Shown piece after piece: positions 87 to 36,549 of a DNA stretch of 36,549 nucleotides. The notes under the pieces are model-generated. The model saw only the letters and a list, made by a program, of their open reading frames with translations. It was not told the DNA's origin and made no database searches. Each line of letters opens with the position of its first letter. The stretch's first letter is position 1. The stretch comes from Chiloscyllium plagiosum (taxonomy: Eukaryota). The DNA lies in assembly GCF_004010195.1 (NCBI RefSeq), contig NC_057718.1, positions 9,248,209-9,284,757 on the forward strand, written 5' to 3'. A program made the position numbers and the translations under genes.

Positions 87-182
87 TATTCCTGATGAAG
101 GGCTTTTGCCCGAAACGTCGATTTTGCCTGTCCTCGGATGCTGCCTGAATTGTTGTGCTCTTCCAGCACCACTGATCCAGAA
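87..182 (+). mobile_element. Short Penelope-derived element (family A terminal region)
   Basis: Similar to the terminal repeat of the GIY-YIG-bearing element at 10971-11063. Confidence 0.8.
89..122 (+). ncRNA. Minimal hammerhead ribozyme motif (family A)
   Basis: ttc-CTGATGA-a-GGGC tttt GCCC-GAA ACGT C-gat: catalytic core, 4-bp stem II, palindromic ACGT and a GUC cleavage triplet. Confidence 0.75.
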
Positions 183-863
183 TTTGCTCCATATCCCTCT
201 AAACCCTTCCTATCCATGTACTTGACCAAATGCCTTTTAAATGATCATGATTTGGAGATGCCGGTGTTGGACTGGGGTGTACAAAGTTAAAAATCATACA
301 ACACCAGATTATAGTCCAACAGGTTTAATTAGAAGCACTAGCTTTCGAGCAACTATAATCTGGTGTTGTGTGATTTTTAACTTTTAAATGCTGTAATTGT
401 ACCAGCCTCCACCACTTCCTCCTGCAACTCGTTCCATTCACGTACTACCCTCTGTATGAAAAAGTTAGCCCTCAGGACCCTTTTACATTTTTCCCCTCTT
501 ACTTTAAACCTATGCCATCTGGCTTTGGACTCCCCCACCCCAGGGAAAAGACCTTGGCTATTCACCCTATCCAAGCCCCTCATGGTTTTATAAACCTCTA
601 CAAGGTCACACCTCAGCCTCCAACGCTCCAGGGAAAAAGGCCCCAGCCTATCCAGCCTCTCTGTATAATTCAAACTCTCCAGTCTCAGTAACAGCCTTGT
701 AAAGCTTTTTTGCACCCTTTCAAGTTTAAGAACATCCTTCCTATAGCAGGGAGATCAGAATTTAACACAGTACTCCAAATGTGACCTTACCAAATATCTT
801 GTACAGCCATAACATGACATCCCAGCTCCTGTACTCAATGCTCTGACAGATGAAGGCAAGCAT
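183..863 (-). mobile_element. CR1 LINE 3' part (ORF2 C-terminus and 3' UTR)
   Basis: ORF 377..715 reads LNYTERLDRLGPFSLERWRLRCDLVEVYK...NFFIQRVVREWNEL, the typical CR1 ORF2 C-terminus. Confidence 0.9.
244..380. mobile_element. Fold-back PLE-derived mini-element (family B) inserted in CR1, with a 10-bp TSD
   Basis: Inverted arms gttaaaaatcatacaacaccagattatagt / actataatctggtgttgtgtgatttttaac; TSD cttttaaatg at 234-243 and 381-390. Confidence 0.8.
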
Positions 864-1458
864 GATGGATCTTTTACAACCTATCATGAAATACAGGGAG
901 AACTAGCCATTTGGATACAGAACTGGCTCAAATGTAGAAGACAGAGGGTGGTGGTGGAGGGTTGTTTTTCAGACTGGAGGCCTGGTGGCTAGTGGTGTGC
1001 CACAAGGATCAGTGCTGGGTCCATTACTTTTCATCATTTATATAAATGATTTGGATGTGAACATAGGAGGTATGGTTAGTAAGTTTGCAAATGACACCAA
1101 AATTGGAGGTGTAGTAGACAGCAAAGAAGGTTACCTCAGATTACAACGGGATCTTGACCAGATGGGCCAATGGGCTGAGAAGTGGCAGATGGAGTTTAAT
1201 TCAGATAAATGTGAGGTGCTGCATTTTGGAAAAGCAAATCAGAGCAGGACTTATACACTTAATGGTAAGGTCCTTGGGAGTGTTGTTGAACAAAGAGACC
1301 TTGGAGTGCAGGTTCAGAGCTCCTTGAAAGTGGAGTCGCAGGTAGATAGGATAGTGAAGAAGACATTTGGTATGTTTTCCTTTATTGGCCAGAGCACTGA
1401 GTACAGGAGTTGGGAGGTCTTGTTGTGGCTGTACAGGACATTGGTAAAGCCACTTTTA
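864..1458 (+). mobile_element. CR1 LINE reverse transcriptase fragment
   Basis: ORF 985..1482 reads SGVPQGSVLGPLLFIIYINDLD...KFANDTK (degenerate FADD)...WQMEFNSDKCEVLHFG. Confidence 0.92.
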
Positions 1459-2084
1459 ACATCTACTGTCTATCATCAATGATTGTGGACTGTGGGTGAA
1501 AAACATTAGCTTATTGCTGTATTGTGAATCTCAGCCTGGATAATGCATTCATATAGCTGCAGTGGATTACACCTGTTGATTTGCATCATGCCCTCTGTGC
1601 TGCGGCATAGTTGACACTTTCTATGAAGGTGGGATGCAATTGCTATGATGCTACAAATGGATACAATTATGGCCATGAAAGGGTAAAACTGGCACATGCC
1701 TCCTGTTGGCACCAACAGTAAGGTTGGCACAGAGTCAATGTGCAAGCACAAAAATAGCACAGTAGAAATTGATTGGCATCACTGGGATAATTGGCATTCT
1801 TGACACAGGTGGCCAAATGAGTGCAGATGGTATGTGTTGGCATGGCTGACACAGCTGAAAATCTCTGAGCAGCACTCAGTTGGGCACAGCTGGCAGGTTT
1901 GTTTCCGTCCTTTGTATCGGACGCGCAAGGTTGCACTGTTGTCTTTGCAAAAGTGCGCCACCACTGAGTAGTTCAGCCACCATTGATGAACTTGAAACAC
2001 GTGGACATCAACAACAACAAACTCAGTCAAAGGCAACAACCATGCATAGACTGTACAGCACAGAATCAGACCGTTCAGCCCAAC

Positions 2085-3270
2085 TGGTCCATGGCAATGT
2101 TTATTTCTTCTGCCAGAGGGTGGTGACTCTGTGGCAATCAGTGCCACAGAGGGCTGTGGAGACCAAGTGTATTTAAGCCAGAGATAGATAGGCTCTTACT
2201 GAGTATGGGGAAATGGATAGAAGACAGGAGAATGGGGTTGAGAAATGTATCAGCAAAGATCAAATGGTGGAGTAAATGATGGGCCCCATGGTCTGCTCCT
2301 GGTTTCTATGTTTCTATACAATGAGCTTTAGATAGATTACACCAGTGGACAAAACATGGTGTAATGTGTAAAGTGGGAAAATGTCAGGTTGTGCACTTTG
2401 GCAGGGAGAATAGGGCAGGTCTGGGTGGGATGGTCTTCAGAGGGTCAGTGTTGACTCAATGGGCCAAATGACCTCTTTCTGCTCCATGGGGATTCAATGA
2501 TTCTACAAGTAGAATAGCAGAATTGTGTTTCAATGAAGCAAGATTGTAGCATGCTGATGGAAGAGGGATCTGGGTGTCCTGGGACATAAACACAAAACAT
2601 TAGCACGCAGCGAATAACTGGGAAGGCACACAGAATGCTGGCCTTTATTACAATGCGGATGGAATGTAACAGCAGGGAATTTTTGCTACAGCTGTAGAGG
2701 AAATTTGTGAGTTCCCATCTCACAGCTTTGGCCTCCTTTTTTGCGGAGAGATATATCCACATTGAAAGCAATTCACAGAAGGGTTGAATGGTGGAATGAT
2801 GGGGCTGTCTTATCAGGGAAGGTGGAACAGATGGGGTCTATATTGAGGCGTTTATAATAAAGAGGAATTTATTCTCTCTGAGGGTTGTTCCTCTTTTGAA
2901 GTTCTTTCCCCAGTGATCAATGGAGACAGGATAATTGACTATAGACAGATATCTGATTGTCGTGGGAGAAAGGGTTAAATGGGGGACAGGGAGGAAACGG
3001 TATTAGGTTAGTCATCATCTGATTGAATGTAGACAAGCAGGAGGCTGGAAGAACACAGCAAGCCAGGCAGCATCAGGAGGTAGAGAAGTCGACGTTTCAG
3101 GTGTAACCTTTCTTCAAGAGTCCTGAAACGATGACTTCTCCATCTTCTGATGCTGCCTGGCATTCTGTGTCCTTCCAGCTTGTCTACTTTGGTTTCCAGC
3201 ATTTTTTTGTCTCCAACCATGATCTGATTGAATGGCAGAGCAGAGGCCGAATGGCCTCAATCCATTGTTG
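2085..3270 (+). mobile_element. Old, degenerate CR1 LINE fragments
   Basis: CR1-like segments: ttcttctgccagagggtggtg, aaatgtcaggttgtgcactttggcagggagaa and the 3' end gattgaatggcagagcag. Confidence 0.65.
3030..3221. mobile_element. Fold-back PLE-derived mini-element with a degenerate hammerhead and a 13-bp TSD
   Basis: Arms of about 70 bp at 3030-3101 and 3122-3187; TSD atctgattgaatg at 3017-3029 and 3222-3234; minus-strand ttgaaga...gaaacgtc. Confidence 0.75.
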
Positions 3271-3939
3271 GTTTGTAGGTTGTTTCCTCTTGCTCTGCCT
3301 GCAAATGGAAGCTTGCGTTTTCTCACCGACCTACACTCAGAGACAGCACTGACTCCTCGTGGGATCGATTCCCAACATCCTTCCAGCAGAGACCATGCCA
3401 GGAAAGTAGTTACCCATAGCCCTGGATCCTCTGCCACTACCGCATCCCAAACTGGAGAAGACCGGCCTTTAGCAGCAGAGCCAACTTTAAAGAGCTCACT
3501 CCCCATCAATCCATGGCCGGTGGGTCATCAAAGAGACGGAGGAGAAATTTGCTGCCTCGGTGTTTTCAAAACCAAGAGGCACATTCTTTTTACAGACTTC
3601 TCCTGTCTCACCCTATCTTCCACTTGCTCATTTTCCCAGAATCTCCCGAGATCCATCCATCTTCCCCGTGGTATTGAGCAGGATATCCTCCTTCCACATA
3701 TGGTAACAGCTGATTTGCAGAGCAATGATCAGAGAAATAACAAAACAAACCGCCTCGCATTTGCAACGACACCCAGACCGGTCAGTCCTCAAACCAAGAA
3801 GGCTGGGGGCGGGCAGCCACAATGTGTCCTTGTACAGGCAAGGGTTTTGCTCTATCAAGGGTTTGGCTGCAATACTAGCTGCAGCAGCAACAGCTTGCAT
3901 TTATGTGGCGCCCGTTAGACAGCAGAACGCCCCAAGGAA

Positions 3940-4547: not shown

Positions 4548-4709
4548 CAAGGTTAGAGTGGTGATGGAAAAGCAGATTCCTGATGAAGGGCTCCTGCCTG
4601 AAACATCAATTTCCCTGCTCCTCAGCTGCTGCCTGACCTGCTGTGCTTTTCCAGCACCACTCTAATCTTGAGTCTGATCTCCAGCATCTGCAGTCCTCAC
4701 TTTCACCTG
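4548..4709 (+). mobile_element. Short PLE family A element with degenerate hammerhead and short inverted 5' arm
   Basis: cctgatgaagggctcctgcctgaaacatc; imperfect TSD acagagtatactgc (4534-4547) / acagcgtacactgc (4710-4723). Confidence 0.75.
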
Positions 4710-4779
4710 ACAGCGTACACTGCACCCCATGTCCTTCCATTTCTTCCTCCCTTATCCAGCTTCCTTTAGATGGGAATTT

Positions 4780-4990: not shown

Positions 4991-5768
4991 CTGTGCTACT
5001 CTACCCTGTGACATGGTGAGTTTCACTCTCTGATGAAGACTTGGAAACAAAATGAAAAACTCAATCTGTGTGATAGATTTTAGTAAAAACAGAGAGGCAA
5101 GGAGGTTTAGAGATGAATTTCCAGGGCTTAAAGGACAGCAGAAGGGACAGTCACCAATGATGCAGTGATTGAAGCTGTGGAGACAGCAAGAGGCTAGGAT
5201 CCGAGGATGGGCTGGGGGGGGGGGGGGGTTTACCTAGGGCCCACAGGTTGCAAATTGGACTTCTCTGCCATCTCAGACCCCAGAGCGGAAGGCCAGTCAT
5301 GCTCGATCCAGAGGGACTGCCAAAGATACCTCAGGAACGCTGCACTGTCAGAGATGCAGAGGTTACAAAACTCTGGTGAATAGCAACAAAACAGTCCAAC
5401 AGCGACAAAGTACTTTGTTGGCTATAAAGTGCTTTGGGGCACTCCTGAGACAACAAAAGGCACCATATAAATACAATGCTTTCTTTTACCAAGTAAGCCT
5501 CATGCCCTCAATTGGAAAACAAACCAGGCATATCTTTGTCCAGTTTGGGTGAGTTTTAACTGTCAATTAAACAACCTTTTAATTACCACTCCCCCACCCA
5601 ACACCCCCACCACCCCAGTATTTTTAACAATATTGAAGGAGACAGTTTTCTCAACATCCCTGTTACTTCTCTCTAAGAGTTAGTTGCTCATTGCCATGCC
5701 TGTGAGATTAATCACTCGTTCCTGTAAGACTCCATTGTGACAGCAGCAGTGTTACCCTGACCCACTCA

Positions 5769-5894
5769 TTCCTGATGAAGGGCTTATGCCCGAAACATCG
5801 AGTCTCCTGCTCCTCGGATGCTGCCTGACCTGCTGTGCTTTTCCAGCACCACTCTCTCGACTCTGATCTCCAGCGTCTGCAGTCCTCACTTTCT
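5769..5894 (+). mobile_element. Short PLE family A element with hammerhead motif and 8-bp TSD
   Basis: attcCTGATGAaGGGCttatGCCCGAAAcatcgagt; TSD cccactca at 5761-5768 and 5895-5902. Confidence 0.8.
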
Positions 5895-8848: not shown

Positions 8849-9230
8849 CCCCATAAACTGGGAGTTAAAGAAAGTTCCTTTGTTATCGTATAACAGGGGG
8901 CCCATTCAGTAGGAGAAAGTGAGGACTGCAAATGCTGGAGATCAGAGCCAAAAATGTGTTGCTGGAAAAGCGCAGCAGGTCAGGCAACATCCAAGGAGCA
9001 GGAGAGTCGGGCATAAGCCCTCCTTCAGGAATGAGGAGAGTGTGCCAAGCAGGCTAAGATAAAAGGTAGGGAGGAGGGGCGTTGGAAATGCAATTGGTGG
9101 AAGGAGATTAAGATGAGGGTGATAGGCCAGAGTGGGGGTGGGGGCTGAGAGGTCAGGAAGAAGATTGCAGGTTAGGAAGGTGGTGCTGAGTTCGAGGGTT
9201 GGGACTGAGACAAGGTGGGGGGAGGGGAAA

Positions 9231-10063
9231 TGAGGAAACTGGAGAAATCTGAGTTCATCCCTTGTGGTTGGAGTGTTCCTAGGCGGAGGATGAGGCGCTC
9301 TTCCTCCAGCCATCATATTGCTATGGTCTGGCGATGGAGGAGTCCAAGGACCTGCATGTCCTTGGTGGAGTGGGAAGGGGATTTGAAGTGTTGAGCCACG
9401 GGGTGGTTGGATTGGTTGGTCCGGGTGTCCCAGAGGTGTTCTCTGAAACATTCCGCAAGTAAGCGGCCTGTCTCCCAATATAGAGGAGGCCACATCAGGT
9501 GCAGCGAATGCAGTAAATGATGTGTGTGGAATGTAGGTGAATTTGTGGCAGATATGGAAGGATCCCTTGGGACCTTGGAGGGAAGTAATGGGGGAGGTGT
9601 GGGCGCAAGTTTTGCATTTCTTGCGGTTGCAGGGGAAGGTGCTGGGAGTGGAGGTTGGGTTGGTGGGGGGTATGGACCTGACAAGGGAGTCATGGAGGGA
9701 GTGGTCTTTTCGGATCGCTGATAGGGGAGGGAAGGGAAATATATCCCTGGTGATGGGGTCCGTTTGGAGGTGGCGGAAATGACGACGGATGATACAATGT
9801 ATATGATGGTTGGTGGGGTGGTAGGTGAGGACCAGTGGGGTTCTGTACTGGTGGCAATTGGAGGGGCAGGGCTCAAGGGCGGAGGAGGGGGAAGTGGAGG
9901 AGATGCGGTGGAGAGAATCGTCGATCACGTCTGGGAGGAAATTGCGGTCCTTGAAGAAGGAGGCCATCTGGGTTGTTCGGTTTTGGAACTGGTCCTCCTG
10001 GGAGCAGATGCGGCAGAGACGAAGGAATTGGGAATATGGGATGGCGTTTTTACAGGGGGCAGG
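9231..10063 (-). pseudogene. Penelope ORF C-terminus (RT thumb/linker and GIY-YIG endonuclease), frameshifted
   Basis: AIPYSQFLRLCRICS...RTPLVLTYHP...FPCNRKKCKTC...ETGRLLAECFREH...HPVAQHFKSPSHS...MQVLGL are characteristic PLE motifs. Confidence 0.88.
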
Positions 10064-10838
10064 NNNNNNNNNNNNNNNNNNNNNNNNNNNNNNNNNNNNN
10101 NNNNNNNNNNNNNNNNNNNNNNNNNNNNNNNNNNNNNNNNNNNNNNNNNNNNNNNNNNNNNNNNNNNNNNNNNNNNNNNNNNNNNNNNNNNNNNNNNNNN
10201 NNNNNNNNNNNNNNNNNNNNNNNNNNNNNNNNNNNNNNNNNNNNNNNNNNNNNNNNNNNNNNNNNNNNNNNNNNNNNNNNNNNNNNNNNNNNNNNNNNNN
10301 NNNNNNNNNNNNNNNNNNNNNNNNNNNNNNNNNNNNNNNNNNNNNNNNNNNNNNNNNNNNNNNNNNNNNNNNNNNNNNNNNNNNNNNNNNNNNNNNNNNN
10401 NNNNNNNNNNNNNNNNNNNNNNNNNNNNNNNNNNNNNNNNNNNNNNNNNNNNNNNNNNNNNNNNNNNNNNNNNNNNNNNNNNNNNNNNNNNNNNNNNNNN
10501 NNNNNNNNNNNNNNNNNNNNNNNNNNNNNNNNNNNNNNNNNNNNNNNNNNNNNNNNNNNNNNNNNNNNNNNNNNNNNNNNNNNNNNNNNNNNNNNNNNNN
10601 NNNNNNNNNNNNNNNNNNNNNNNNNNNNNNNNNNNNNNNNNNNNNNNNNNNNNNNNNNNNNNNNNNNNNNNNNNNNNNNNNNNNNNNNNNNNNNNNNNNN
10701 NNNNNNNNNNNNNNNNNNNNNNNNNNNNNNNNNNNNNNNNNNNNNNNNNNNNNNNNNNNNNNNNNNNNNNNNNNNNNNNNNNNNNNNNNNNNNNNNNNNN
10801 NNNNNNNNNNNNNNNNNNNNNNNNNNNNNNNNNNNNNN
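10064..10838. other. Assembly gap (775 N)
   Basis: Run of N. Confidence 1.
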
Positions 10839-10973
10839 CGGGTGTCCCAGAGGTGTTCTCTGAAACATTCCGCAAGTAGGCGGCCTGCCTTCCACCAATT
10901 GCATTTCCAACGCCCCTCCCCCAAGTCCCTCCTCCCTACCTTTTATCTTAGCCTGCTGGACACACTTTCCTCA

Positions 10974-11007
10974 TTCCTGAAGAAGGGCTCATGCCCGAAA
11001 CGTCGAT
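10974..11007 (+). ncRNA. Hammerhead ribozyme motif in the Penelope pseudo-LTR (family A)
   Basis: ttc-CTGAAGA-a-GGGC tcat GCCC-GAA ACGT C-gat. Confidence 0.75.
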
Positions 11008-12231
11008 TCTCCTGCTCCCTGGATGCTGCCTGACCTGCTGCGCTTTTCCAGCAACACATTTTCGGCCCACTCAGTAGTTGGGTTCCACTGAAGCCTCAGC
11101 TAAATACTAAGAGACTGGATGGTTAATAGACAGAACTGTAAATACGATAACTGTAAATTCGATTAACTCAATCTGTTCTCTGTAATGTTAAGACGTGCAA
11201 TGTATATATGAACAGCATGATCAATTGTACATAGATTTATTTCTATGAATAAAGTACATTTTGAAATTTTAAAAAAATTATATTTATATAGCACCTTTAC
11301 AGTAGAATAACATTTGAAGGTGGTCCACACAATGACATTCCTCCTGGGTGTTTTTGGCAGTGCACTCAATGGGCTAAAAGGTTATTTCTATACTATCTGA
11401 TTCTATGATTCTAAGACAGTTAGCTTTGTAAAAACATATCTCAACATAGAAGGGATTTGTGGCCTTTCACCAGAATGAGATTCCACAAATGACAATGGGA
11501 TTTTTATTTTATTTTCCCAATTGGGGGTGTCACTGGCCGGGCCAGGAATTCTTGCCCACCCCGAACTGCCCCTTGTCAAACTAATGGTGAACTCCTTTCA
11601 GGCTCTCCTTCAAACTAGTCTCTGACCAACTTTCAGCAATTATCCCGAGTATCCCTTTATGCGGCTCCTTGCCCAGTATCGTTATTAAGGTGCTTCTGTC
11701 AAATGACTTCCAACATTTTATGACTTACGCATTTATCCCGCTCTGCAGCCCTTCCCCCATCTTCTCCCCATAACCCTGCAATTTCTCCTTTTCAGATGAT
11801 AATGGAACGTCTTCTTGAAGGTCTCTTCTGAACCTGCCTACCACCCCCCGCCCCCCCCCCCCCCCCCCGCCCCCCATCCATTCTCAGGCAGTAGATTCCA
11901 GATCCTAGCCACTTGCTGGATGAAAACATTTCTCCTCATGTCTCCATCGCTTACTCTGCCAATCACCTTCAATCCACGTGCTGAGGTTCCCCTGGCCTCC
12001 TTTCCTCCTTGTGTTTATTGAGTTTCCCCTCAAATTCATCAACATCATTCACCATGACCCCCTCATGTGGTGGAGAGTCCAATATTCCTGCCTGTGCAAA
12101 GAATTTGTCACTGTTGAACTTATGAGGGGTTGCATTAGGTGTGTCCCATGTTTTGAACTCCTTCACAAGTGGGCACATTAGGGACAATGCAACTTCCCCC
12201 CCCCCCCCCCGCCCCTCCCGTGAATAGGCAG

Positions 12232-13595
12232 AACTTTCACTGTTTGTGGTAGGGTCCTGGGGAGTGTTGTCAAACAGACAGACTGATGGGTTCATGTACA
12301 GAGTTCTTTGAAGGTAGTGTCACAGATAGACAGAGTCATTAAGAAGGTGTTTAGTGCACTTGCTTTCATTATTCTGATCACTGGGTATAGGATTTTGGAG
12401 CATAAGACATAGGAGCAGAAATTAGGCCATTCAGCCCATCGAGTCAGCTCCACCATTCAATCATGGCTGATCCTTAGATGCTGCCTGAACTGCTGTGCTA
12501 TTCCAGCACCACTAATCCAAAATATGGTTTCCAGCATCTGCAGTCATTGTTTTTACCTACCTGATAAGTTTCTCAACCTAATTCTCCCTCTTTCTCCCCG
12601 TAACCCTTGATCCCCTTGCTACTCAAGAACCTATCTATCTCAGTCTTAAATATACCTGGCCTCCACAGCCTTATGTGGCAGTGAATTCCATAGATTCCCC
12701 GATCTCTGGCTGAAGATGTTTCTCCTTATCTCTGTAAAAGGTCTTTCCTTTACTCTCAGGCTGTGCTCTCGGGTCCTAGTCTCTCCTACCAATGGAAACA
12801 TCTGCCTAACATCTACTCTGTCCAGGCCATTCATTATTCTGTAAGTTTCAATTAGATCCCCCCTCATCGTTCTAAACTCTGTTTATTATAGACTCAGAGT
12901 CCTCAAATGTTCCTCATATGTTAGGCTTTTCATTCCTGGGACCATTCTCGTGAACCTCGTCTGAACACGCTCCAGGGCCAATCCATCCTTCCTGAGATAT
13001 GAGGCCCTAAACTGTGCACAATACTCCAGTTGTCATGTTGTGATTGTACAGGACATTGGTGGGGCCACATTTGGAGTACTGTGTGCAGTCCTGGTAGGAA
13101 GGAAGGATATTAAAGTAATTGGAAAGGATTCAGAAAAGATTGACCGGGATGTTGCCAGGACAGGAGGGTTTCAGCTATAGAGAAAGGTCAGATAATCTGG
13201 GACTTTTTTCACTGGAGAATAGGAACCTTATAGAGGTTTAGAAAATCATAAGGGACACACATTAGGCGAACAGCAAAGGTCTTTTCCCTAGGGAGGGGGA
13301 GTTCAAAACAACAGGGCATGTTTTTAAGGTGAGAGGCGAAAGATTTAAGAGAGACCTTAGGGGCAACTTTTTCACACAGAGGGTGGTTCGGTGTGTGGAA
13401 TTAGCTGCCAGAGGAAGTGGTAGAGGCAGGTATAGTTACAACATTTAAAAGGCAATTGAATAGGTACATGGTTAGGAAAAGTTCGGAAGGAGATGTGCCA
13501 ATGGCAGGCAAATGGGACCAGTTTAGTTTGTGAACATGACGGCATGGACGAGTTGGACCAAAGGACCTGTTTCTGTGTTGTATGCCTCTACGACT
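12232..13595 (+). mobile_element. CR1 LINE 3' portion split by a nested antisense CR1
   Basis: gggtataggattttggag (to 12400) rejoins gtcatgttgtgattgtacaggacattgg (from 13032); ends in the CR1 tail ctctacgactctatg. Confidence 0.8.
12401..13031 (-). mobile_element. Nested CR1 LINE 3' end, itself carrying a PLE fragment at about 12472-12560
   Basis: ORF 12646..12867 reads MRGDLIETYRIMNGLDRVD...RRNIFSQR...WNSLP. Confidence 0.85.
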
Positions 13596-16593: not shown

Positions 16594-16808
16594 TAGAAAG
16601 TGAGGACTGCAGATGAGGGAGATCAGAGTCGAGACTGTAGTGCTGGAAAAGCACAGCAGGTCAGGCAGCATCCGAGAAGCAGGGGAATTGGCATTTCGGG
16701 CATAAGCACTTCATCAAGAACGAGAAGATGACGAAGGGTTTATACCCGAACATCAATTCTCCTGCTCCTCGGTTGCTGCCTGACCTGCTGTGCTTTTCCA
16801 TCACCACA
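16594..16808. mobile_element. Fold-back PLE family A mini-element with two divergent degenerate hammerheads
   Basis: Inverted arms at about 16640-16716 and 16729-16806; flanks ctctccccatcct / ctctgcccatcct resemble a TSD. Confidence 0.8.
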
Positions 16809-17012: not shown

Positions 17013-17575
17013 TAAGCTAAAAATCACACAACACCAGGTTATAGTCCAACAGGTTTATTTGGAAGCACTAGCTTTCCGAGCGCTGCTCCTTCATCAGGTG
17101 GTTGAGGAGCAGGAAGATATGACACAGAATTTATCGCAAAAGGTTACAGTATCCTGCGGCTGAAATATATTAAACAAACTTAGATTAAGTCTTGCATCGT
17201 TTAGAATGGTTTTGCTAGTTTCGGTTCATTAATATGCAAATCCCAGAACTCCTTTTAAGTCATAGTCTCAAGGTAACTTCAGGTTTCCTAACAAAGTGTG
17301 TCATCTCAGCTCACACCATGCATTAAAGGTGTGAGGTGAAAGTCTGTCTGTGTCCCCACCTTGAGTCAGACTGGTTCTATTTCTGAAGTGGGATTTATCT
17401 AAAGTGACACATTTTTTTAGAAAACCTGAAGTTACCTTGAGAATGTGACTTAAAAGGAATTCTGGGATTTACACATTAACGAACCGAAACTAGCAAAACC
17501 ATTCTAAAAGATGAAAGACTTCATCCAATTGTGTTTAATACATTTCAGCTGCATGACACTATAACCTTTTGCGAT
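17013..17575 (-). mobile_element. PLE family B 3' end with a ~170-bp inverted arm
   Basis: 17133-17303 and 17404-17575 are reverse complements; the left end matches 244-380 and 25362-25565. Confidence 0.8.
17066..17100 (-). ncRNA. Hammerhead ribozyme motif (family B)
   Basis: Minus strand reads cac-CTGATGA-a-gGAGC agc GCTCg-GAA AGCT A-gtg, with stem I cac/gtg and a palindromic AGCT. Confidence 0.7.
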
Positions 17576-25361: not shown

Positions 25362-25565
25362 TTATGATTTGGAGATGCCGGTGTTGGACTGGGGGTGTAC
25401 AAAGTTAAAAATCGCACAACACCAGGTTATAGTCCAACAGGTTTAATTGGAGGCACTAGATTTTGGAGCACTGCAGGTGGTTGATGATGAAGGAGCAGTG
25501 CTCCGAAATCTAGTGCTTCCAATTAAACCTGTTGGACTATAACCTGGTGTTGTGTGATTTTTAAC
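25362..25565. mobile_element. Fold-back PLE family B mini-element with mutated hammerhead
   Basis: Near-perfect inverted arms at about 25404-25474 and 25494-25565; atgatgaaggagcagtgctccgaaatctagtg. Confidence 0.82.
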
Positions 25566-25829
25566 TATCTTAATTGTTGTAATTGAATTTGAGAGACAGC
25601 TTCATATTGGCATTTTAAGCACTTTCTTTCATGGGGCGCGGGTACCACTGACAAGACCAGCAAGTGTTTCCTATCCCTAATTGTCCTTGAACTGAGTGGG
25701 TTGCTAAGCGACCTGAATGTCAGCCACTTGCTTGTGGGTCTGGAGTGACATGTAGGCCAGACTGGGTAAGGATGGCAGATTTTCTTCCCTGAAGGGCAAT
25801 AGTGAACCAAATGATTTATTTCCCAACAG

Positions 25830-26310
25830 AGAAAGGAAAGATATAAAAGGGACCTAGGGGACAATGTTTTCACGCAAAGGGTGGTGCATGTGTGGAATGA
25901 GCTGCCAGAGGAAGTGGTGGAAGCTGGTACAATTACAACATTTAAAAGGCACCTGGATGCGCATATGAATAGGAAGGGTTTGGAGAGATATGGATCAAGA
26001 TTAGAGTGGTGCTGGAAAAGCACAGCAGGTCTGACGGCATCCGAGGAGCAGGAAAATTGACGATTCAGGGAAAAGCTCTTCATCAGGTTGAATGGGCTTT
26101 TACCCGAAACGTCGATTTTCCTGCTCCTCTGATGCTGCCTGATCTGCTGTGCTTTTCCAGCACCACTCTACTCTTGACTCTGATCTCCAGTACTCACTTT
26201 CACCTTGGAGAGATATGGGCCAAGTGCTGGCAAATGGGAGCAGATTAATTTAGAATATCAGATCAACATGGACAAAAGGGAACATTGCCATGCTGTACAT
26301 CTCTACATCT
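25830..26310 (+). mobile_element. CR1 3' end inserted in a SacSINE-like SINE and interrupted by a PLE fold-back element
   Basis: gatataaaagggacctagggg...tggaatgagctgccagaggaagtggtgg. Confidence 0.8.
25994..26204. mobile_element. Fold-back PLE family A mini-element with a 14-bp TSD
   Basis: TSD ttggagagatatgg at 25980-25993 and 26205-26218; inverted arms; two degenerate hammerheads back to back. Confidence 0.85.
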
Positions 26311-26721
26311 GTTGATTCATTATTACACTCTAAATTCCAGATTGCTTTTTATTGAATTGAAATTTCACATCAGCCATGGCAGGATTTAAAGCTCAGAACA
26401 TTACTTTTGTCTCTGTGTTAACAGTCCAGTGGCAATACCACGAGGCCATCACCAAACCAGGGATGGAGAGTAGATTGCCTTCTCTAAGGGCATTATTGAG
26501 CCTAGATGGGTTTTCAATTCGAGATTTATTAATTGAATTCAGATTCCACCAGCCGCCCTGATGGGATTTGAACCCATGCTGCGGTGTTACCATCTCCCCT
26601 GCATTTCCCAGGAGATCACCCTGATTGTTGGTCCCTCTATCTGCAGCAATCCTGCTGAAATCTCTACTTTCCTTCCATAGATTTTTAACACATGCCTAGA
26701 AACCTAGTACCTCTTATACCT

Positions 26722-26883
26722 ACGCACACTTGTACACACGCACATACTTACACACACACATGCGCGTGCACACATATGCACACACACAAGCACAGACGTA
26801 CACACACACATGCTTACGCACACAAGCATACACACACGTATATATACACATGCATGTGTACACACACACACACACACACACAG
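26722..26883 (+). repeat. Degenerate (CA)n microsatellite
   Basis: Directly visible. Confidence 0.9.
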
Positions 26884-28294
26884 AGTTAACACTCCAGGTT
26901 AACATTGTCTGTTGCACTCTCGTACCTGTTTCCAGAGATTCTCTCACTATCATTTTCTTTCAAGGCTAAAGACATAAGTTCCAGTGAATTCAAGATAGAG
27001 TGGCTACAGAAGGTTAAGGGGCATTTGGAAATCTTAGCACATTGACATGCCAACAATTTTATATCTGAATAGAGTGAGTTATCTTTCAGTAAATGCTGAG
27101 GTAAAACAACCACGTGTTTCACTAAAGCCTAGACTTCAACATTGACCACGCTGTGCAAGTGGTTAGAAAATACTTTGGGCACCATGAGATCATGAAAGGT
27201 GCTATATAAATGCAAGGTTGCTCCTCAAAGCTCTTGCAGTAAACAATTACAACAGTTATAGATGCCAGCATACTTCAGATCATTCATGGGCCAATGCTTT
27301 GGAAAGCCAATTCTTGGAAGCCACAGCGATGGGACAGTGAAATACTGCTATCACGACCACATCCTGAGGTCAAAACTGGAGGAAATGGAACCATCAAGTG
27401 CCAACTTTAACTAATTCTATCTTGAGCAGAATGGGGCATTCTGAACTGGATACCAATCACGATGGCACACTCAGCCTTTGTAAACAGAACCTCAGCATAA
27501 CTTGCAACAAATTCCACATGAAGCCAATGTATAGACAATGTTGGCACTCAATAAGATGGCTGCTGACAGAGTGCAAAGTCTTGTTTGCAATTCCGCAGTA
27601 CAAGGGCTACATTGTTCCTTGACTTTGATCAGTAAACATCAACACTGTGACGGGATGCTTGAGACTCTTGGGCCCAGTGAATCGGACCTTTGTATCAAAG
27701 CCGGGCACTGGAGCCCCACATGCATCATGTGCTGCTAATTATGGACTTAAGGGTGTATTGTGATCTGCTCAAGGGCCTCACAAGACAGGCCGCCGATAGG
27801 GTCACTCCTGTGACATAACCATCTTCTAAGGTCGTCTGAAGAAAATGGATTCTCCCTGCCAGCCCCTTCCCCCTCTGCCCCCAACCACCGCCAACTCCCC
27901 TCATACACCCTGACACTTCCAGACAACAAACATCTCAAGATACAAGGGCCTCCAATCAGCAAAGTCATCTGCTCTTCTCCATCAACATAGTTTGATAATT
28001 CTGATAACTCTGCTGCCCTCTCGCCCAGATGCTAAGGAAAACATTGACCATTTAACAATGTCCTTTAAGACGTCAAATCAAATCCGACACTCTGGCATAA
28101 TGTGACTGAAGTAGATATGCTCCTGCCAGTCCATTAAAAAGGGGCATATTGTACTTCATATATATCCAGTCAAAATCCGGGACAGTGTCCCAGGCTGTGC
28201 AACAACTAACCTCCATATCATCTAGTTAGAGGAAAGCAATTCAGCTATATAATTTGTTAATTAATGTATCAAGTAAATTGAAATGTGTCAGGGC

Positions 28295-29008
28295 ATGTGT
28301 GTAAATTTATGTGTGAGAGTGTGTGTGAGTGTTCATATATGTGTGTGTATATTTGTGTGGGGGTTCATGTACGAGTGAGTGAGAGTGAATGTCTGTGTGT
28401 GTGACAGAGGTGTCTGAGTGTGTGACGTATGAATGTATATGTTTACGCATGTGGGTGTGCATTTGTGTGTGTGATTAGCTGAGTGTGTAAGACTTTGTTT
28501 GTGAGAGTGAATGCGTGCATGTGAGAGAGAGGTATTTGAGTGTGTGTATGAATGTGTGTGTGTCTGTGAATGTGAGGGAGTGTGAGAGTGTGAATTCTTG
28601 CCCCAGAGGGCAGTTAAGAGTCAATCACATTGTTATAGATCTGGAATCACATGTACGCCAAGCCCAGTAAGGACAATGGATTTCCCTCCTTAACGGGATC
28701 AATAACCCAGATGGGTTTTTTCAACAATTGTGTGAGGCAATGTGGGTATGCACGTGTGTGTGTGCGTGAGTGTGCATGCGGAACTATGTAATTGTGTGTG
28801 AACATGAGCTGGAGCGCATTTGTGCATTTATGCAAGTGAATGTGTGTGTGCGAGCTGTGTGTGTATGAATGTGGTACAGTTTGTTCATGGGACTGCATGT
28901 GTGTGCTTGTGTGAGTGTGAGTAAGCTTGAGCTGGGCTGTGTGTATGAATTTGAGAGAGTTTGTGAGATCATAATTGAGAGAATGGATGCAATTAACTGT
29001 GTGTGAGA
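28295..29008 (+). repeat. GT-rich low-complexity tract split by a SINE fragment (about 28592-28730)
   Basis: Degenerate (TG)n; the central piece matches 29790-29925. Confidence 0.8.
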
Positions 29009-29526
29009 CTGGGGCAGGGGAACCTTGGACAATGAAGGAGGAATTTGCAATATTAAGGTGTCCCCACACTAATGATGTCTATCACACCAGTATGATATCT
29101 AGTTACTACTGTGCAATAAACTTTGTCTGGATTAAGACAACAGCCTTTCTCATTAAACTAATTTTCCTCATCCATACCAGATCAACAGGCCCTATAAATC
29201 CCAACCAATAAAGGGGATGGTGGCAACAGATCTACCAGGTAGATCTTACCCCATGCTGAGCTGTGGTGAGGATTTATCTTAGATCATGATGGCAGTGATG
29301 GGTAACATTGCTTCTTATAACGAGACAGCAAGTCATGGATGTCAACAAGAGTTGAATCTTCAAGAACCCTATAATTAAGAAATCTGTGCAAGATTCTAGA
29401 GGCAGGATCTGCCATCGATGGTGAAAGATGCCCAGCAGTGAGTATGACCGCAAACCTCCATGGAGCTGTCAAATCACTCACACCAGAACAGCTACAGATT
29501 GCATTAGGAGCCAACAATGTGTAAAA

Positions 29527-29640
29527 CTCAGAAGAGACAGAATTGCTGATGAATCTTTGTCGGATCTATCAAGAGTCAAAGGAAGATTTGACTCTGGAGA
29601 AAGCCATTCAGGTGGGAAGTGAAGCAGAAGTCTAGAAGCA
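29527..29640 (+). pseudogene. Small Ty3/Gypsy gag-like remnant
   Basis: Joining two frames gives LRRDRI..ADESLSDL/ESKEDLTLEKAIQV, resembling the gag motif IRDRIV.GI.D..L...L....DLTL.KA. Confidence 0.5.
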
Positions 29641-29744
29641 ATACTGATCAACATTAAGAAGGGAAGATCAACTTTATTACAGGAGATCAGCATAACATGA
29701 TCATGCCAAGTAAAAGACAATCCTCAAGTGAAGCTCCTCACTTT

Positions 29745-30090
29745 TTAAAAAATTCATTCATGGGTTCTGGCCTGGCCAGCATTTAGCAACCTAATTGCTT
29801 CAGAGGGCAGTTAAGAGTCAATCACATTGCTATGGATCTGGAATCCTATGTAGGCCAAACCGTGTAATGACAGCAGGTTTCTTTCCCCAAAGGGCATCAG
29901 AGAACCAGATGGGGTTTTCCCAACAATTGACAATGTTGCATGGCCATCATTGTATTCTTAATTCCTGACATTTATTGGATTCAAATTCCACCATCTGCCA
30001 TGGTAGGAATCAGACCCAGGTCCCCAGAGCATTACCTGTGTCTCTGGATTAAAAATCCAATGATAATACCACTAGGCCATCACCTCCCCA
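29745..30090 (-). mobile_element. SacSINE1/Deu-like SINE, near full length
   Basis: Reverse-complement similarity to 14476-14803 from head to tail. Confidence 0.75.
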
Positions 30091-30204
30091 GTAACCATTT
30101 CACCAGCAATGTAATTACTGCAAATACACTCCATCCACAGCTGAAATTAACATCCTGTATTGTGGGAGAGTGCATGGGCAGGATTTTGCAGTGTGATTGA
30201 GTTT

Positions 30205-30755
30205 ACGTATATGTGGGAGCATGTGTGCATGCGTGAGTGGTTACACGCATGAGTGACTGAACATGTGTGAGAGTGAGTATATATGGGCGCATGTGTACAC
30301 GTGTGAGTGAGCGGTTACACGCATGAGTGACTGAACATGTGTATGAGAGTGAGTATAAGTGTGAGAATGTGCGCATGTGTGTGTGAATGGTTACAAGCAT
30401 GGGTGACTGAACATGTGTATGAGAGTGAGTATATGTGTGAGCATGTGTGCACATGTATGTGAATGGTTACATGCATGAGTGACTGAACATGTGTATGAGC
30501 GTGAGTATATGTGTGAGCATGTGTGCACGTGTGTGTGAATGGTTACACGCGTGAGTGACTGAACATGTGTATGAGCGTGAGTATATGTGTGAGCATGTGT
30601 GCACATGTGAGTGAATGGTTACATGCACGAGTGACTGAACATGTGTATGAGAGTGAGTATGTGTGTGTGCATGTGTGCACGTGTGTGTGAATGGTTACAC
30701 GCATGAGTGACTGAACATGTGTATGAGAGTGAGTATGTGTGTGTGCGTGTGTGTG
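30205..30755 (+). repeat. 76-bp minisatellite, about 7 copies
   Basis: The anchor gtgactgaacatgtgt recurs at 30253, 30327, 30403, 30479, 30555, 30631 and 30707. Confidence 0.95.
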
Positions 30756-31219
30756 ATTTCCAGAACAACATTGATTTAGCTGTTTAAGGAGGCTTTGATC
30801 CCATCATCACCACGGTTATGTGGTCCCCATTGGAGTCAATATTTATTAATCATACCATCATAAAGAACAGGATTGAAATAAACAACAAGGAAAGAGCTCA
30901 ATGATAGGCCTCCATACCACGCCAGTAAACTGTCACATAAAACAAAAAGTAATTGTTAATTACAGCACTCACACTCAATAGAAATTGATCCATTCAACAA
31001 ATCCTTTGGGACATCAGAAAGGATTTGCTGTCATGCTCAAGATTAATGACAATAGAAGGACACAGGAATAGAAGCATTACTGAGACAAGGCAGAATATTT
31101 AAATGTCAACAGGATAGGAACTCCCAGTATTAATGGGGAACAATTCTCTTTAAAATATCAGCAACATGTTCATGCTTGTAACCTAATCTGCTGAAGGCCA
31201 AGGGGCTACTTCAGCATCT

Positions 31220-33370: not shown

Positions 33371-34773
33371 ACACTCAACCTGTCCAGCAATATTATGACA
33401 CACCTCTGGAGAAGGTGGACTTGTAGCTGGGTCTCCTGGATCAGAGGTAGAGACATTACCACTACATGACAAAAGCCCCAGTCCTCCTACATCTACTTTT
33501 AATGGTCATATTTCCTCTTGAGAAAATGGATGTGCATTTATGTAGCACCTTGGATGATCTCAGGACGCCATGGATCATTTAACGAAGCAATAGATGATCA
33601 CCATGCCTTCCACTCCAGCCTCATGGAATGGGAATGACAGTCATCCATCCCTGATGGATGGAAAAAGTCCCTGGAACAATGTTGAGGGGGACAGGATGCC
33701 TCTCCTAGTGTCCTGGTTAACATTAAACCCTCATTCAACCTCACCAAAGCATGGTCATTATCACATGGTCGTGTGGGGGAACTTGCTGAGCACAAATTGG
33801 GTCTGGTGCTACCTACATTACAGCCGCTGGCTATGCTTCAGAAACTACTTTTTTTTTGTTCATTTTTGGGACTTAGATGTCACTGGCTGGCCAGTATTGA
33901 TAGTCCATCCCTGTCTGTCCTTGAGAAGGTGGTGGTGAGCTGCCTTCTTGAATGGCTGCAGACTGCTTGCTGTGGGTTGACCCACAATGCTCATGCTTGA
34001 CTCAGTGCTGTGGGTTGACCTACTTCATTGGCTGCAATGCACATTGGGTAGAAGCGGCGCTATACAATCGGAAATCTAGCTTTCAAAGACAGGTATTAAT
34101 CGAGCGGCAGAGTGGTAATGGATGGGGTTCCCCAGGGGCAGGCACCTGAACCTCAGCTTCTTCCATTTGGCATTTATCATCTTGACGCAGAGCTGGGAAC
34201 ACAAAGCCGACGGGAATACGGTGAACAGCGTTCAGAAAGCAACGACTGGAGAGTATTTTTGAAGGTGAATAAATGACAGCGCATAGATTGATCGGAAGAT
34301 AAATGAGCTAAGCCAGAAGGAGGTGGGGTAGGAGAGCAGATGTAGACCAGTCATTAAAAATCTCCCTGACAGAAGAGATGGTGATAAATGAGGCAAATGT
34401 AGACTCAGGCAGTTATCCACAGCTTGACCCCCACATTTAAGGCTCTGCTGATGGTCTTACAACATCCAATGGTGAGGCTTTTGCTTTGGACATTAATATC
34501 AGATCAGGTGCAGGCCATTCAGCCCTTCTTACCTTTTACACTGAAACAGGAGAAGGGGCCTCAGACCACTTTAAACCTTAATCAGCCCATGACTGTTCTA
34601 CGCTTTTCAAGTCTACTTGGATCATAGAACCATTTTAAAGTTACAGCACATTAAGAGGCCATTCAGCCCATCATGACTGAATAGAAAACAGCCGCTCGTT
34701 CTAATCCAACCTTCCAGCACCTGGTCTGTAGCCTCACAGGTTATAGTAATTTAGGGGTAGATCCAAGTTTTTT

Positions 34774-35076
34774 TTAGATTAGATTACTTACAGTGTGGAA
34801 ACAGGCCCTTCAGCCCAACAAGTCCACACCGACCCGCCAAAGCGCAACCCACCCAGACCCATTCCCATACATTTACCCCTTCACCTAACACTACGGGCAA
34901 TTTAGCATGGCCAATCCACCTAACCTGCACATCGTTGGACTGTGGGAGGAAACCGGAGCACCCGGAGGAAACCCACGCAGACACGGGGAGAATGTGCAAA
35001 CTCCACACAGTCTGTCGCCTGAGGCGGGAATTGAACCCGGGTCTCTGCGCTGTGAGGCAGCAGTACCACCGTGCCG
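34774..35076 (-). mobile_element. Young-looking HE1/V-SINE-like SINE
   Basis: CpG-rich; B box ggttcaattcccg on the minus strand; full body and (taatc) tail. Confidence 0.88.
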
Positions 35077-36321
35077 TTCTGTCTGTTCATAGCTTTGATT
35101 TCAATTGCCACCCTTTTACCTCACCTATTCCAAGGAAAACAACCCTAACCTATCCAAGCTTTCATCATAATTGCCATTATCAAGCTCTGGCAAACATTCT
35201 TATAAATCTCTTCTGTACTCTCTCCAGAGCAACTATGTCTTTCCTCTGATTCAGTTACTGTACACATTACTCCAACTGTGCTCTGCATGTCTCTGATACC
35301 TTTTCCCAAAGAAAATCAACTTATCTCAGAATTGGAGGCTCCAGCCCTCCTATGAACAAGGATAGTTCAACAATTCAACAGTTATGTGTTCGATTCTCTG
35401 AGGAATGTAAAGCAACAATGTAAGAAGTGCCGCTAAGGCTGCAGTCAGGTGAGCAATGATCTTCTTCAATGTCAGAACAGGCTCAATGGGCTGAATGACC
35501 TACACCTGATCCTATTTCTTGTGTTCTGATGATCTTTTCAGCTCAGGTAAAGGAGCTGCCCCCAGGCTGGTCTTCATAACAGTGATTGTTTAATGCCTTG
35601 TCATATCAAAATTGCTTCACGCAGTGAATCAGATGTAAAGTGTAGTGACTGCAAACGTGCTGACAGCCATGGGAGAGGAAGCTCAGTCAATCGGCTTTTG
35701 GATCGAGGAAGCGGTGTAGGCTGGGAAGCCACGGCGCTTCCTGGCTCTCAGGCAGAACCGATCAAAGCGCCCAGACATCACATGTTTAGTCCCACTGTGA
35801 CACTGAATTCATTCAAAGTTGAGCTGGAGAGATTCATGACAGACAAGCCTCAATAGTCAAATGTGATGAAGGACAGAAGGAAAAGTGGGATTGAGATCAG
35901 AAAGATGTAGAAGACTGGAGGGGCTGAACAGCCTGAGCTTCTTCTGAAGTTCCATGTTCCCACTTTCCACACGGTGACGTACAATGATTCTTTAAATTGT
36001 CATGTTGAATCCTTTTACAGCAAACATCTCGCTATTTATCATCTATCTTAATCTGTATCGTTCCATCTTTATCTATCATCAATCTCTCACTGGCTATATA
36101 TACATATTATAGCTTTCCTAATTTAATTACGTTTATTCTTAGATTGACACCATCACGCTCAATGAAATTATTTAGTGAGGCTTGAAAGTGCTCATTACTG
36201 CCCGCCTGTCTAGATAACCCATTGTCTGTAATTGAGACAGAGTATAGCTGTGATATTTCACCCACGTCAGGACTGTTGACAGTCATTTGGATGTTAGATT
36301 TAAGGAGGAAAAGAGGAATTC

Positions 36322-36549
36322 AAAGTTTGGGCGAAGATTTGTAGCTCGGGTGCTCGTTGTTGTGGTTCTGTTCACCGAGCTGGGAATTTGTGTTGCAGAC
36401 GTTTCGTCCCCTGTCTAGGTGACATCCTCAGTGCTTGGGAGCCTCCTGTGAAGCGTTTCTGTGATCTTTCCTCCGGCATTTGTAGTGGTTTGTATCTACC
36501 GCTTCCGGTTGTCAGTTCCAGCTGTCCGTTGCAGTGGTCGGTATATTGG
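36322..36549 (-). mobile_element. 3' terminus of a third PLE family (C), running off the window
   Basis: CpG-retaining segment containing a hammerhead motif. PLE assignment is by analogy, as no ORF lies in the window. Confidence 0.6.
36395..36434 (-). ncRNA. Hammerhead ribozyme motif (family C)
   Basis: Minus strand reads gca-CTGAGGA-t-GTCaCCT agac AGGgGAC-GAA ACGT C-tgc, with stem I gca/tgc. Confidence 0.75.

Follow-up and report, generated by a model that had tools for sequence, protein, structure and literature searches.

The hammerhead-like motifs in the stretch of DNA analysed here (36,549 nucleotides, referred to as the window) are very probably minimal type I hammerhead ribozymes (min-HHRs), located in the pseudo-LTR part of three endonuclease-bearing lineages of Penelope-like elements (PLEs). 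Of these lineages, family A has a Neptune-like linker, family B is a second, distant lineage and family C is Poseidon-like. What the preliminary description of this DNA had caught is correct; the kind itself has been known since 2014, when min-HHRs were described in the pseudo-LTRs of metazoan PLEs (Cervera & de la Pena 2014, PMC4209133), and it is the members in a shark-like genome that are new. Nearly all genomic copies, including most of those in the window, are dead, that is, 5'-truncated, arranged head to head or mutated.

All hammerhead motifs that had been assigned coordinates are present in the sequence. Family A follows the pattern CTGANGA-A-GGGC-N4-GCCC-GAA-ACGT-C at 92-119, 5772-5799 (with ACAT for ACGT) and 10977-11004; these three sites had been listed, and a further copy at 4580-4607 had been overlooked. 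The motifs of families B and C are found on the minus strand at 17097-17069 and 36431-36398, respectively, the form reported for B needing correction at position 11.1, which in this copy is G and not C. The estimate of about ten motifs can be itemised: a hammerhead descriptor matches the window four times when applied strictly and five times with one stem mismatch tolerated, and only three copies (92, 10977 and 36431) are fully consensus. In 300 dinucleotide-preserving shuffles of the window, the mean number of matches was 0.01 (maximum 1) for the strict and 0.04 (maximum 2) for the one-mismatch version. Using blastn, 19 family pieces are detected in the window (13 A, 5 B and 1 C), about 13 of which retain part of the motif. 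Over the whole genome, the exact patterns occur 18,219 times for A, 14,834 times for B (stem form GGAGC-N3-GCTCC) and 4,621 times for C, compared with 0 for each of the reversed-pattern controls, and a loose descriptor gives 229,115 matches versus 927 in its control, so that calling the genome "heavily seeded" was justified. The families had also been considered unrelated, which is true of their nucleotides outside the core (blastn-short between families returns just 11-nt and 9-nt core matches); all three are nonetheless PLEs. The individual pieces are:

77-186, plus strand: family A, 5'-truncated 3' end in the short-end form, 97% to a young genomic copy.
89-122 (core 92-119), plus strand: fully consensus hammerhead of the 77-186 element, preceded by a 16-nt tandem repeat.
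248-347, minus strand, and 352-384, plus strand: B head-to-head remnant, hammerhead cut within stem II.
3044-3179: A-like pair arranged head to head, diverged, its hammerhead core decayed; weak mir-641-like Rfam match.
4576-4695, plus strand: older A copy; hammerhead 4580-4607 with G.U at 10.1/11.1 and ACAT for ACGT.
5768-5884, plus strand: older A copy; hammerhead 5772-5799 with intact core, helix III palindrome lost (ACAT).
8924-9032, minus strand: 3' end of a longer A element; hammerhead broken by an insertion in the CUGANGA box and deletion of GAAACGUC.
9208-10063, minus strand: remnant, with frameshifts, of the ORF belonging to the 8924-9032 element; it includes a CX4CX2C linker plus GIY-YIG endonuclease (9208-9598, 64-72% identity to the family A endonuclease) and stops ~176 nt short of the hammerhead remnant.
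10973-11057, plus strand: A copy facing the minus-strand element 8924-10900 head to head; its hammerhead, at 10977-11004, is fully consensus (N7 = A).
12471-12557, plus strand: A 3' end with a 35-nt tail; the truncation lies downstream of the hammerhead, leaving no motif.
16605-16720, minus strand, and 16729-16807, plus strand: A head-to-head pair, both hammerhead cores mutated, with a weak MIR2118-like Rfam match.
17014-17109, minus strand: B copy; in its hammerhead, 17066-17100 (core 17097-17069), G replaces C11.1.
25365-25469, minus strand, and 25485-25566, plus strand: B head-to-head pair with arms 96% complementary; in the right-arm hammerhead C3 is changed to A and AGCT to ATCT.
26005-26087, minus strand, and 26089-26190, plus strand: A head-to-head pair, both hammerheads decayed or truncated.
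36316-36549, minus strand: end of a C element (3' end ~36316) with a fully consensus hammerhead at 36431-36398, stop codon TAG in loop II, and an ORF C-terminus (36549-36418) with 95% identity to the family C endonuclease tail.

The segment 10064-10838, upstream of the ORF remnant, reads N.

The catalytic core, defined as C3 U4 G5 A6 N7 G8 A9, G12 A13 A14, A15.1-U16.1 and H17, is complete in the copies at 92-119, 10977-11004, 36431-36398 and 5772-5799 as well as in the genome-wide form of B, and broken in the remaining window copies; both B copies of the window (17097 and the right arm of 25365-25566) have a core-damaging change. A palindromic ANNU, the G10.1-C11.1 pair and a single unpaired base after A9 are found together in the window copies 92, 10977 and 36431 and in genome-wide B. 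Helix II is closed by G10.1-C11.1 in nine of nine lineage representatives, the exceptions in the window being the A copy at 4580 (G.U) and the B copy at 17097 (G.G), in which the G at 11.1 breaks this key pair. The unpaired base between A9 and G10.1 is A in families A and B and U in family C. Helix I has only 2-3 bp, loop-loop contacts are absent and helix III is, as had been described, cut down to a self-complementary tetramer, namely ACGU in A and C and AGCU in B; in older copies the palindrome has been lost by CpG decay (ACAU, AUGU, AUCU). Judged by its sequence, such a tetramer would allow a predicted helix III formed between two motifs (dimer). The stem covariation noted previously exists between lineages and not among copies of one family. 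In helix II, 26 of 27 cells at positions 2-4 are paired across the nine representatives, with 3-4 pair types; for helix I, the lineage representatives have 2-4 pair types at positions 1-3. Within family A, a sublineage has A-U for G-C (GAGC/GCUC), with U at 11.2 in 23 of the 74 copies having A at 10.2. Compensatory change among copies of family A was not detected: for copies mutated at 10.3, 3 of 100 are compensated, compared with 5 of 100 that have a neighbouring-position change, and individual copies therefore decay neutrally.

The proposed link to PLEs is supported for all three families by ORF context, homologues and insertion structure. Each motif is sense-oriented, follows an ORF that has a GIY-YIG-type endonuclease at its end or overlaps this end, and lies 75-135 nt before the element 3' end in all three lineages. 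In family A, it is located ~190-215 nt downstream of the ORF stop (copies L028-L030), the endonuclease scores 23.2 bits against Pfam GIY-YIG (cut-off 22.6) and is preceded by a Neptune-like CX4CX2C linker; in family B, a contiguous endonuclease ORF end is followed by ~640 nt and then the hammerhead. The motif thus lies in the 3' UTR without coding overlap in both families. The B and C endonucleases, for which a Pfam search gave no match, were recognised by similarity (35-39% to A), and since the three endonucleases have 35-39% identity or none detectable, the earlier wording "several PLE lineages" is right. Longer database homologues contain RVT_1 ahead of GIY-YIG in three of the four scanned, and one homologue has an RVT_1 score of 29.4 bits, just below the cut-off of 29.6; the reverse transcriptase part of the ORFs reads N in the full-length copies fetched from this genome. 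The insertions have variable 5' ends, a partial tandem, inverted 5'-truncated neighbours and an optional tail, in line with published PLE structure, which includes 5' truncation, partial tandems, an adjacent inverted copy and a 30-40 bp tail (PMC8557442; PMC11167929). There are two alternative 3' ends, 35-40 nt apart (~39 nt in family C), and 5 of 9 family A and 4 of 12 family B copies have the longer one, with the tail; for the Anolis element, the tail has been explained by two RT start sites and the ORF start placed at stem II (Frangieh et al. 2024, PMC11167929). Close pairs are head to head in 1 of 4 cases in family A (the other 3 being same-strand), 11 of 14 in family B and 16 of 16 in family C.

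Two explanations that would make the hammerhead likeness incidental were considered. The core is short, and Rfam hammerhead models, proposed previously as a check, do not match the window motifs: with release 15, nothing was found at the gathering score or at E<=10 over the window, nor in the 91-nt and 101-nt ranges around the A and C motifs, an outcome expected for motifs that have no helix III. A chance resemblance to the hammerhead consensus is nevertheless exceedingly improbable, as 4-5 motifs are observed versus 0.01-0.04 per shuffled window, thousands of genomic matches stand against 0 in the reversed-pattern controls, and the core is kept with different stems in three independent lineages. 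The hairpin could instead be part of a LINE or SINE 3' tail on the opposite strand: the A copies of the window have in common an abrupt boundary immediately upstream of CTGATGA, and the 16-nt tandem repeat at one such boundary could pass for a LINE 3' end. However, genomic copies continue upstream of the motif into the sense-strand GIY-YIG ORF, and their ends are fixed ~100-135 nt downstream of the motif with variable 5' truncation, so the motif is on the sense strand of the element; this reading was rejected on these grounds and we regard it as hardly credible.

The family C motif overlaps the stop codon of the ORF as well as its start codon. In five of six copies the ORF's stop is the TAG of loop II, and in 11 of 14 the frame starting at the in-motif ATG runs without a stop through all of its 35 codons. 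In copy L067, a partial tandem with ORF continuity, this frame extends 325 aa into the PLE N-terminal region, and its N-terminal part matches an RT+GIY-YIG protein with 43% identity (91 aa, E 4e-18). In the favoured reading, the AUG made up of A9-U-G10.1 starts the ORF of the element, and the following copy ends it with the UAG of its loop II. The predicted cut lies 25 nt behind the AUG, and the downstream RNA would therefore lose its start codon. We tentatively suggest, as a possibility that is still rather doubtful, that the family C ribozyme brackets the whole gene in this manner, the ORF being ~11 nt longer than one element unit so that only tandem or circularised RNA could encode the protein, and that the hammerhead serves as a switch between messenger and template RNA. 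If true, such a switch would operate in a genome containing some 2 x 10^5 of these motifs.

In tandem RNA of active elements, the motif would be expected to cut 3' of GUC (families A and C) or CUA (family B). As helix III consists only of ACGU or AGCU and helix I of 2-3 bp, cutting would need pairing of two motifs and/or the element's own protein, the latter possibly helping as in the Anolis element. Published min-HHRs cleave poorly in vitro (PMC4209133), dimer cleavage of minimal hammerheads has been described (Lunse, Weinberg & Breaker, via review PMC6765202), and the Anolis motif cleaves once protein is added, with a C3G/G8C rescue test (PMC11167929). Alternatively, the hammerhead-derived motif could be kept in active elements for a selected role other than RNA cutting, either as a binding or folding site for the RT/EN protein near the start of reverse transcription or, in family C, as translation start/stop context. 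The fixed spacing of 75-135 nt to the 3' end in three lineages and the minimal helix I fit such a role, as do the start and stop codons inside the family C motif, through which coding constrains it. RNA data are in line with it as well: the 1,137 reads of a poly-A single-cell run (X19) come from both strands, their depth tracks copy number and no molecule ends are reported at the cut site, from a library type unable to show such ends. For Anolis, hammerhead mutants are described as leaving insertion in vitro unaffected and RNA-seq reads as neither beginning nor ending at the site (PMC11167929), and PLE clades without hammerheads are reported to proliferate well (Craig et al. 2021, PMC8557442). 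Still, all 13 catalytic-core positions are kept in three lineages that share no other flank sequence, which a mere protein-binding hairpin would not need, the motif does not overlap coding sequence in families A and B, and the protein-assisted cleavage and C3G/G8C rescue of the Anolis motif speak for cutting. A purely non-cutting role therefore appears unlikely.

With this assignment, three abundant repeat families of the shark-like genome are placed as PLE ends, their hairpin-forming head-to-head pairs are explained by PLE identity, and the hosts of minimal hammerheads are extended to cartilaginous fish. Knowledge of the min-HHR kind itself is unchanged by these families; about 2 x 10^5 motif copies, together with young consensus-like ones, would be good material for the question of in vivo cutting and its helper.

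Canonical type I hammerheads include the Schistosoma and newt satellite ribozymes. The motifs described here have the same catalytic core and NUH cleavage-site rule, but lack a helix III stem and contacts between loop I and loop II, and have one additional base following A9. Animal non-LTR retrozymes are tandem type I hammerhead repeats giving circRNAs, whose hammerheads are derived from or related to PLE pseudo-LTRs (PMC7229834), and they are reported from the one cartilaginous fish sampled (Li, Clavereau & Pollet 2026 preprint). Unlike these, the window is without a tandem array of short hammerhead units, and its copies are dispersed ends and head-to-head pairs. Family C resembles the Poseidon element PAc of Anolis carolinensis (PMC11167929): the ORF starts where stem II begins, the AUG is followed after 25 nt (26 bp in PAc) by the cut site, the element 3' end is reached ~105 nt after the ORF start (111-118 in PAc) within an AC-rich stretch that has a stem-loop, and there is an optional 30-40 nt tail. 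The preceding ORF of family C also stops in loop II of the motif, for which no counterpart was seen in the description of PAc, and in families A and B the motif is in the 3' UTR without coding overlap. Compared with the metazoan PLE min-HHRs (PMC4209133), a shark-like host was not seen among those of that paper, and the 229,115 matches to our loose pattern are far more than the ~4,000 in coelacanth and ~9,000 in Xenopus, but were obtained with a different descriptor and are not directly comparable. The two groups have in common a type I layout lacking a true helix III and a palindromic 15.x-16.x, a single base left unpaired between A9 and G10.1, the conserved G10.1-C11.1 pair, a short helix I and a helix II of 4-7 bp, several consensus families per genome, and copies that are mostly single and truncated, with opposite-strand pairs 100-700 bp apart.

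A regular-expression scan of the window finds CTGANGA followed 12-50 nt on by GAAA in 11 places, and in six of these a hairpin lies exactly between both boxes and is followed by A-NN-T-H, the minimal hammerhead motif (min-HHR):

92, plus strand, family A motif
4580, plus strand, family A motif
5772, plus strand, family A motif
10977, plus strand, family A motif
17097, minus strand, family B motif
36431, minus strand, family C motif

This confirms the motifs of the preliminary description, whose strings and coordinates are correct; its family A list holds good for the copies that it names and overlooks the one at 4580, and its family B motif is right in place and strings, but that copy reads GCTCG where the family has GCTCC, so that the G10.1-C11.1 pair is broken. 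Under a stricter descriptor (CTGANGA, no more than one unpaired base, a hairpin with a stem of 4 bp or longer and a loop of 3-7 nt, then GAAA-NN-T-H) four sites remain, or five with one stem mismatch permitted, compared with means of 0.01 and 0.04, respectively, in 300 dinucleotide-preserving shuffles. With one natural copy per family as query, blastn detects 13 pieces of family A, five of B and one of C in the window, most of them truncated or mutated in the core, and only 92-119, 10977-11004 and 36431-36398 are fully consensus. In the whole assembly (3.56 Gb), the exact patterns of families A, B and C have 18,219, 14,834 and 4,621 matches, respectively, with none in the reversed controls, and a loose pattern (CTGANGA-N-G-N8-18-CGAAA-NN-T-H) has 229,115 matches against 927 in its reversed control. 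The genome is thus heavily seeded with such motifs, as had been proposed, and the window is typical of it, since its four loose-pattern matches compare with a genome-wide rate of 2.4 per window-length (about 64 per Mb); the accompanying term 'potential self-cleaving RNAs' suits only those copies, a minority, in which the core is intact.

The window copies of family A have a common abrupt boundary immediately before CTGATGA, from which came the idea that the hairpin is an opposite-strand LINE or SINE 3' tail. We dropped it because nine genomic copies fetched by the exact pattern are conserved upstream of the motif over variable lengths and have a fixed downstream end, which identifies a retroelement with 5' truncation that has the motif on its sense strand. 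In three long copies an ORF stops 190-215 nt upstream of the motif; its visible end reads ...VIYCIRCSRCGLLYIGETG..LAERFREH...LGTLQPQGINVDFNSF and is GIY-YIG by Pfam (23.2 bits, cut-off 22.6), with N covering the bulk of the ORFs in long or full-length genomic copies as read here. The window itself contains a remnant of this ORF:

9208-9598, minus strand, frameshifted family A ORF remnant (endonuclease), 64-72% identical to the family A endonuclease

The remnant is preceded by a CX4CX2C linker and followed, about 176 nt downstream, by a decayed hammerhead at about 9032, and a run of 775 N (10064-10838) takes up the expected place of the reverse transcriptase in the same minus-strand element; the intact plus-strand copy at 10973 is placed head to head with it. 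A GIY-YIG Pfam profile search of this genome, in which 150 of 14,403 candidates were scored, gave one weak match. A 16-nt tandem repeat of about four and a half units (window 1-88) borders the family A copy at 77 on its 5' side, which fits the insertion bias toward simple repeats described for some Penelope-like elements (PLEs; PMC8557442). In family A a second block, GATGCTGCCTGA..TGCTGTGCT.TTCCAGCACCAC (window 100-172 and other A copies), follows the hammerhead at a distance of about 20-80 nt; it is conserved among subfamilies to the same degree as the motif itself and may be the region where reverse transcription starts.

In family B, a second endonuclease ORF (...AWYIGETEQRLRQ...HFNGPGHS...) stops about 640 nt upstream of the motif and is contiguous with it in two loci fetched from elsewhere in the genome (L034 and L043), and the motif of family C overlaps the end of a third (...NVVYKISCKDCTKHYIAQTGRQL...REFLEAWHS...DLDPIYRPL...STEDVT*), whose TAG stop sits inside loop II in five of the six copies examined. 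No Pfam family matched the B and C endonuclease pieces. The endonucleases are 39% identical over 46 aa between A and B and 35% over 57 aa between A and C, with no detectable similarity between B and C, and at the nucleotide level blastn-short returns core matches of 11 and 9 nt only and nothing among the three families outside the core, where they are indeed unrelated, as first described. For the A and C pieces, the closest named homologues come from orectolobiform sharks, where they are annotated as 'uncharacterized protein', and in three of the four longer homologues scanned RVT_1 precedes GIY-YIG (one of the three RVT_1 matches, at 29.4 bits, being just under the cut-off of 29.6), which is the canonical layout of endonuclease-bearing PLEs. 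The interpretation of the three repeat families as PLE lineages with hammerheads is supported. The genome is densely repetitive, and around the elements there are numerous LINE fragments that retain pieces of a reverse transcriptase, e.g. ...NYRPVSLTSVVGK... (downstream flank of locus L044; also L010 and L009).

PLE insertions are 5'-truncated and partly tandem, often have a further 5'-truncated copy attached in inverted orientation, and carry an optional 'tail' of 30-40 bp that reflects two adjacent start sites of reverse transcription (PMC8557442; PMC11167929). All of these hallmarks are found in the shark families. The tail is a 35-nt extension in five of nine copies of family A and one of about 37 nt in four of 12 distinct copies of family B (absent in seven, interrupted in one), and family C has a longer and a shorter 3' end about 39 nt apart. 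Close pairs differ in orientation as follows.

Close pairs (at most 3.4 kb apart), counted in the 100 matches listed per pattern
Family A: 4 pairs; 1 (-,+) head to head, 0 (+,-), 3 same strand
Family B: 14 pairs; 11 (-,+) head to head, 1 (+,-), 2 same strand
Family C: 16 pairs; 16 (-,+) head to head, 0 (+,-), 0 same strand

Among the matches listed, four of the 11 head-to-head pairs of family B are only 47-51 nt apart, and in four of the 11 the junction is only 15-19 nt away from the two motifs, on their upstream side. For family A copies that align at 90%, read depth and loose ends show that most end no more than about 4 nt before C3 (positions 418-431 of the fetched copy L029; in the window at 4576, 5768 and 10973), where depth drops nine-fold. 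Together, the depth drop and the family B joints point to a preferred site of 5' truncation or strand switching at the 5' edge of the ribozyme and not at its cut site. Head-to-head pairs in the window are:

248-384, head-to-head pair
3044-3179, head-to-head pair
16605-16807, head-to-head pair
25365-25566, head-to-head pair
26005-26190, head-to-head pair

In these pairs, arms of 72-92 nt with 85-96% complementarity form long and nearly perfect hairpins, which accounts for the weak microRNA-like Rfam matches at 3061-3162, 16646-16799 and 25450-25519 (mir-641; MIR2118, E 0.0018; mir-290); if transcribed, such pairs would yield double-stranded RNA. Most other weak microRNA- or snoRNA-like Rfam matches are due to long, imperfect (TG/CA)-rich simple repeats (26700-26890 and 28280-30800) and a 76-nt tandem array of at least six units (30188-30795).

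For PLE min-HHRs, the features that lie outside the published descriptor are a base between positions 9 and 10.1 and a conserved G10.1-C11.1 pair, together with a palindromic 15.2-16.2, covarying consensus families, a short helix I and pairs on opposite strands (PMC4209133). We compared nine natural representatives (two of A, two of an A sublineage, two of B, one of C and two of a C-related lineage), counting pairs from the core outward, as a MAFFT alignment misplaced the stems. The base after A9 is A in families A and B and U in C. Helix II starts with G-C in all nine, and its positions 2-4 have three to four pair types each and are paired in 26 of 27 cells, the sole exception being a conserved A.G in C that is A-U in the C-related lineage. 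Helix I is paired in eight of nine at positions 1-2 (two to three types) and in six of nine at position 3 (four types), with no pairing beyond. Stems that differ in sequence and still pair, as the preliminary description had it, are thus borne out between lineages, with a stem I of only 2-3 bp. Among individual family A copies no compensatory change is evident: position 10.3 is changed in 1,078 copies, and among the 100 listed three are compensated versus five changed at the neighbouring position, as expected from neutral decay of dead copies. One sublineage is compensated: of the 74 listed copies in which 10.2 is A, 23 carry U at 11.2 and mostly a loop of their own, and there is no compensation in the 26 in which 10.2 is U or C. 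We count this sublineage as a single event within a lineage that was propagating. The Rfam hammerhead models, which had been named as a check, matched no motif of any family (cmscan with the gathering-score cut-off, with E<=10, and in two short ranges), likely because they include helix III, which is absent here, and were set aside as a test of this type. RNAfold and cofold, which are unable to represent a double hammerhead, recovered stem II in single motifs and homodimers of A, B (genomic form) and C.

Min-HHRs in PLEs have been known since 2014. A whale-shark repeat list names Penelope (PMC8455134) and a 2026 preprint by Li, Clavereau and Pollet samples one cartilaginous fish; in the literature on shark Penelope elements, hammerheads and retrozymes we found no account of shark hammerheads, although the supplements of the preprint and of PMC4209133 may list such species. 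New here are the host, with three PLE lineages assigned, the scale of motif numbers, and the overlap of start and stop with the motif in family C.

No RNA run was listed as containing the family A 3' region. Of four runs aligned, a poly-A single-cell RNA run (X19) gave 1,137 reads from both strands, with a peak over the motif, an about nine-fold fall just upstream and, among the loose ends there, heterogeneous continuations that mirror how the copies are built in the DNA; neither starts nor stops of molecules were reported in this library type, which is unable to reveal ribozyme ends. Two further runs (X6 and X1, contigs of uncertain kind) show copy structure only, and the fourth (X20) gave 0 reads. 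At the corresponding site of PAc, the Poseidon element of Anolis carolinensis, PMC11167929 likewise reports no reads. As dimers, or when helix III is extended, min-HHRs show weak cleavage (PMC4209133; PMC6765202); according to PMC11167929, the PAc motif cleaves only with the element's protein present, either C3G or G8C abolishes this activity and the two combined restore it in part, and hammerhead mutants leave insertion in vitro unaffected. By analogy, tandem transcripts of the shark elements would undergo dimer- and/or protein-assisted cleavage.

In family C, A9-U-G10.1 forms an ATG. Among 14 distinct copies, 11 keep the frame from this ATG open through all 35 codons as far as the long 3' end, two have the short end and one has a stop. 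In L067, an unmasked partial tandem, it continues for 325 residues, in which no Pfam family was matched and of which 234-324 are 43% identical over 91 aa to the N-terminal part of an RT+GIY-YIG protein (E 4e-18). As the motif ATG opens the frame and the stop sits in loop II, start and stop, seen in separate copies, suggest an ORF bracketed by two copies of the motif. PAc has its cut site 26 bp behind the AUG and its 3' end 111-118 into the ORF; in family C the predicted cut site is 25 nt behind the AUG and the 3' end about 105 nt into the ORF.
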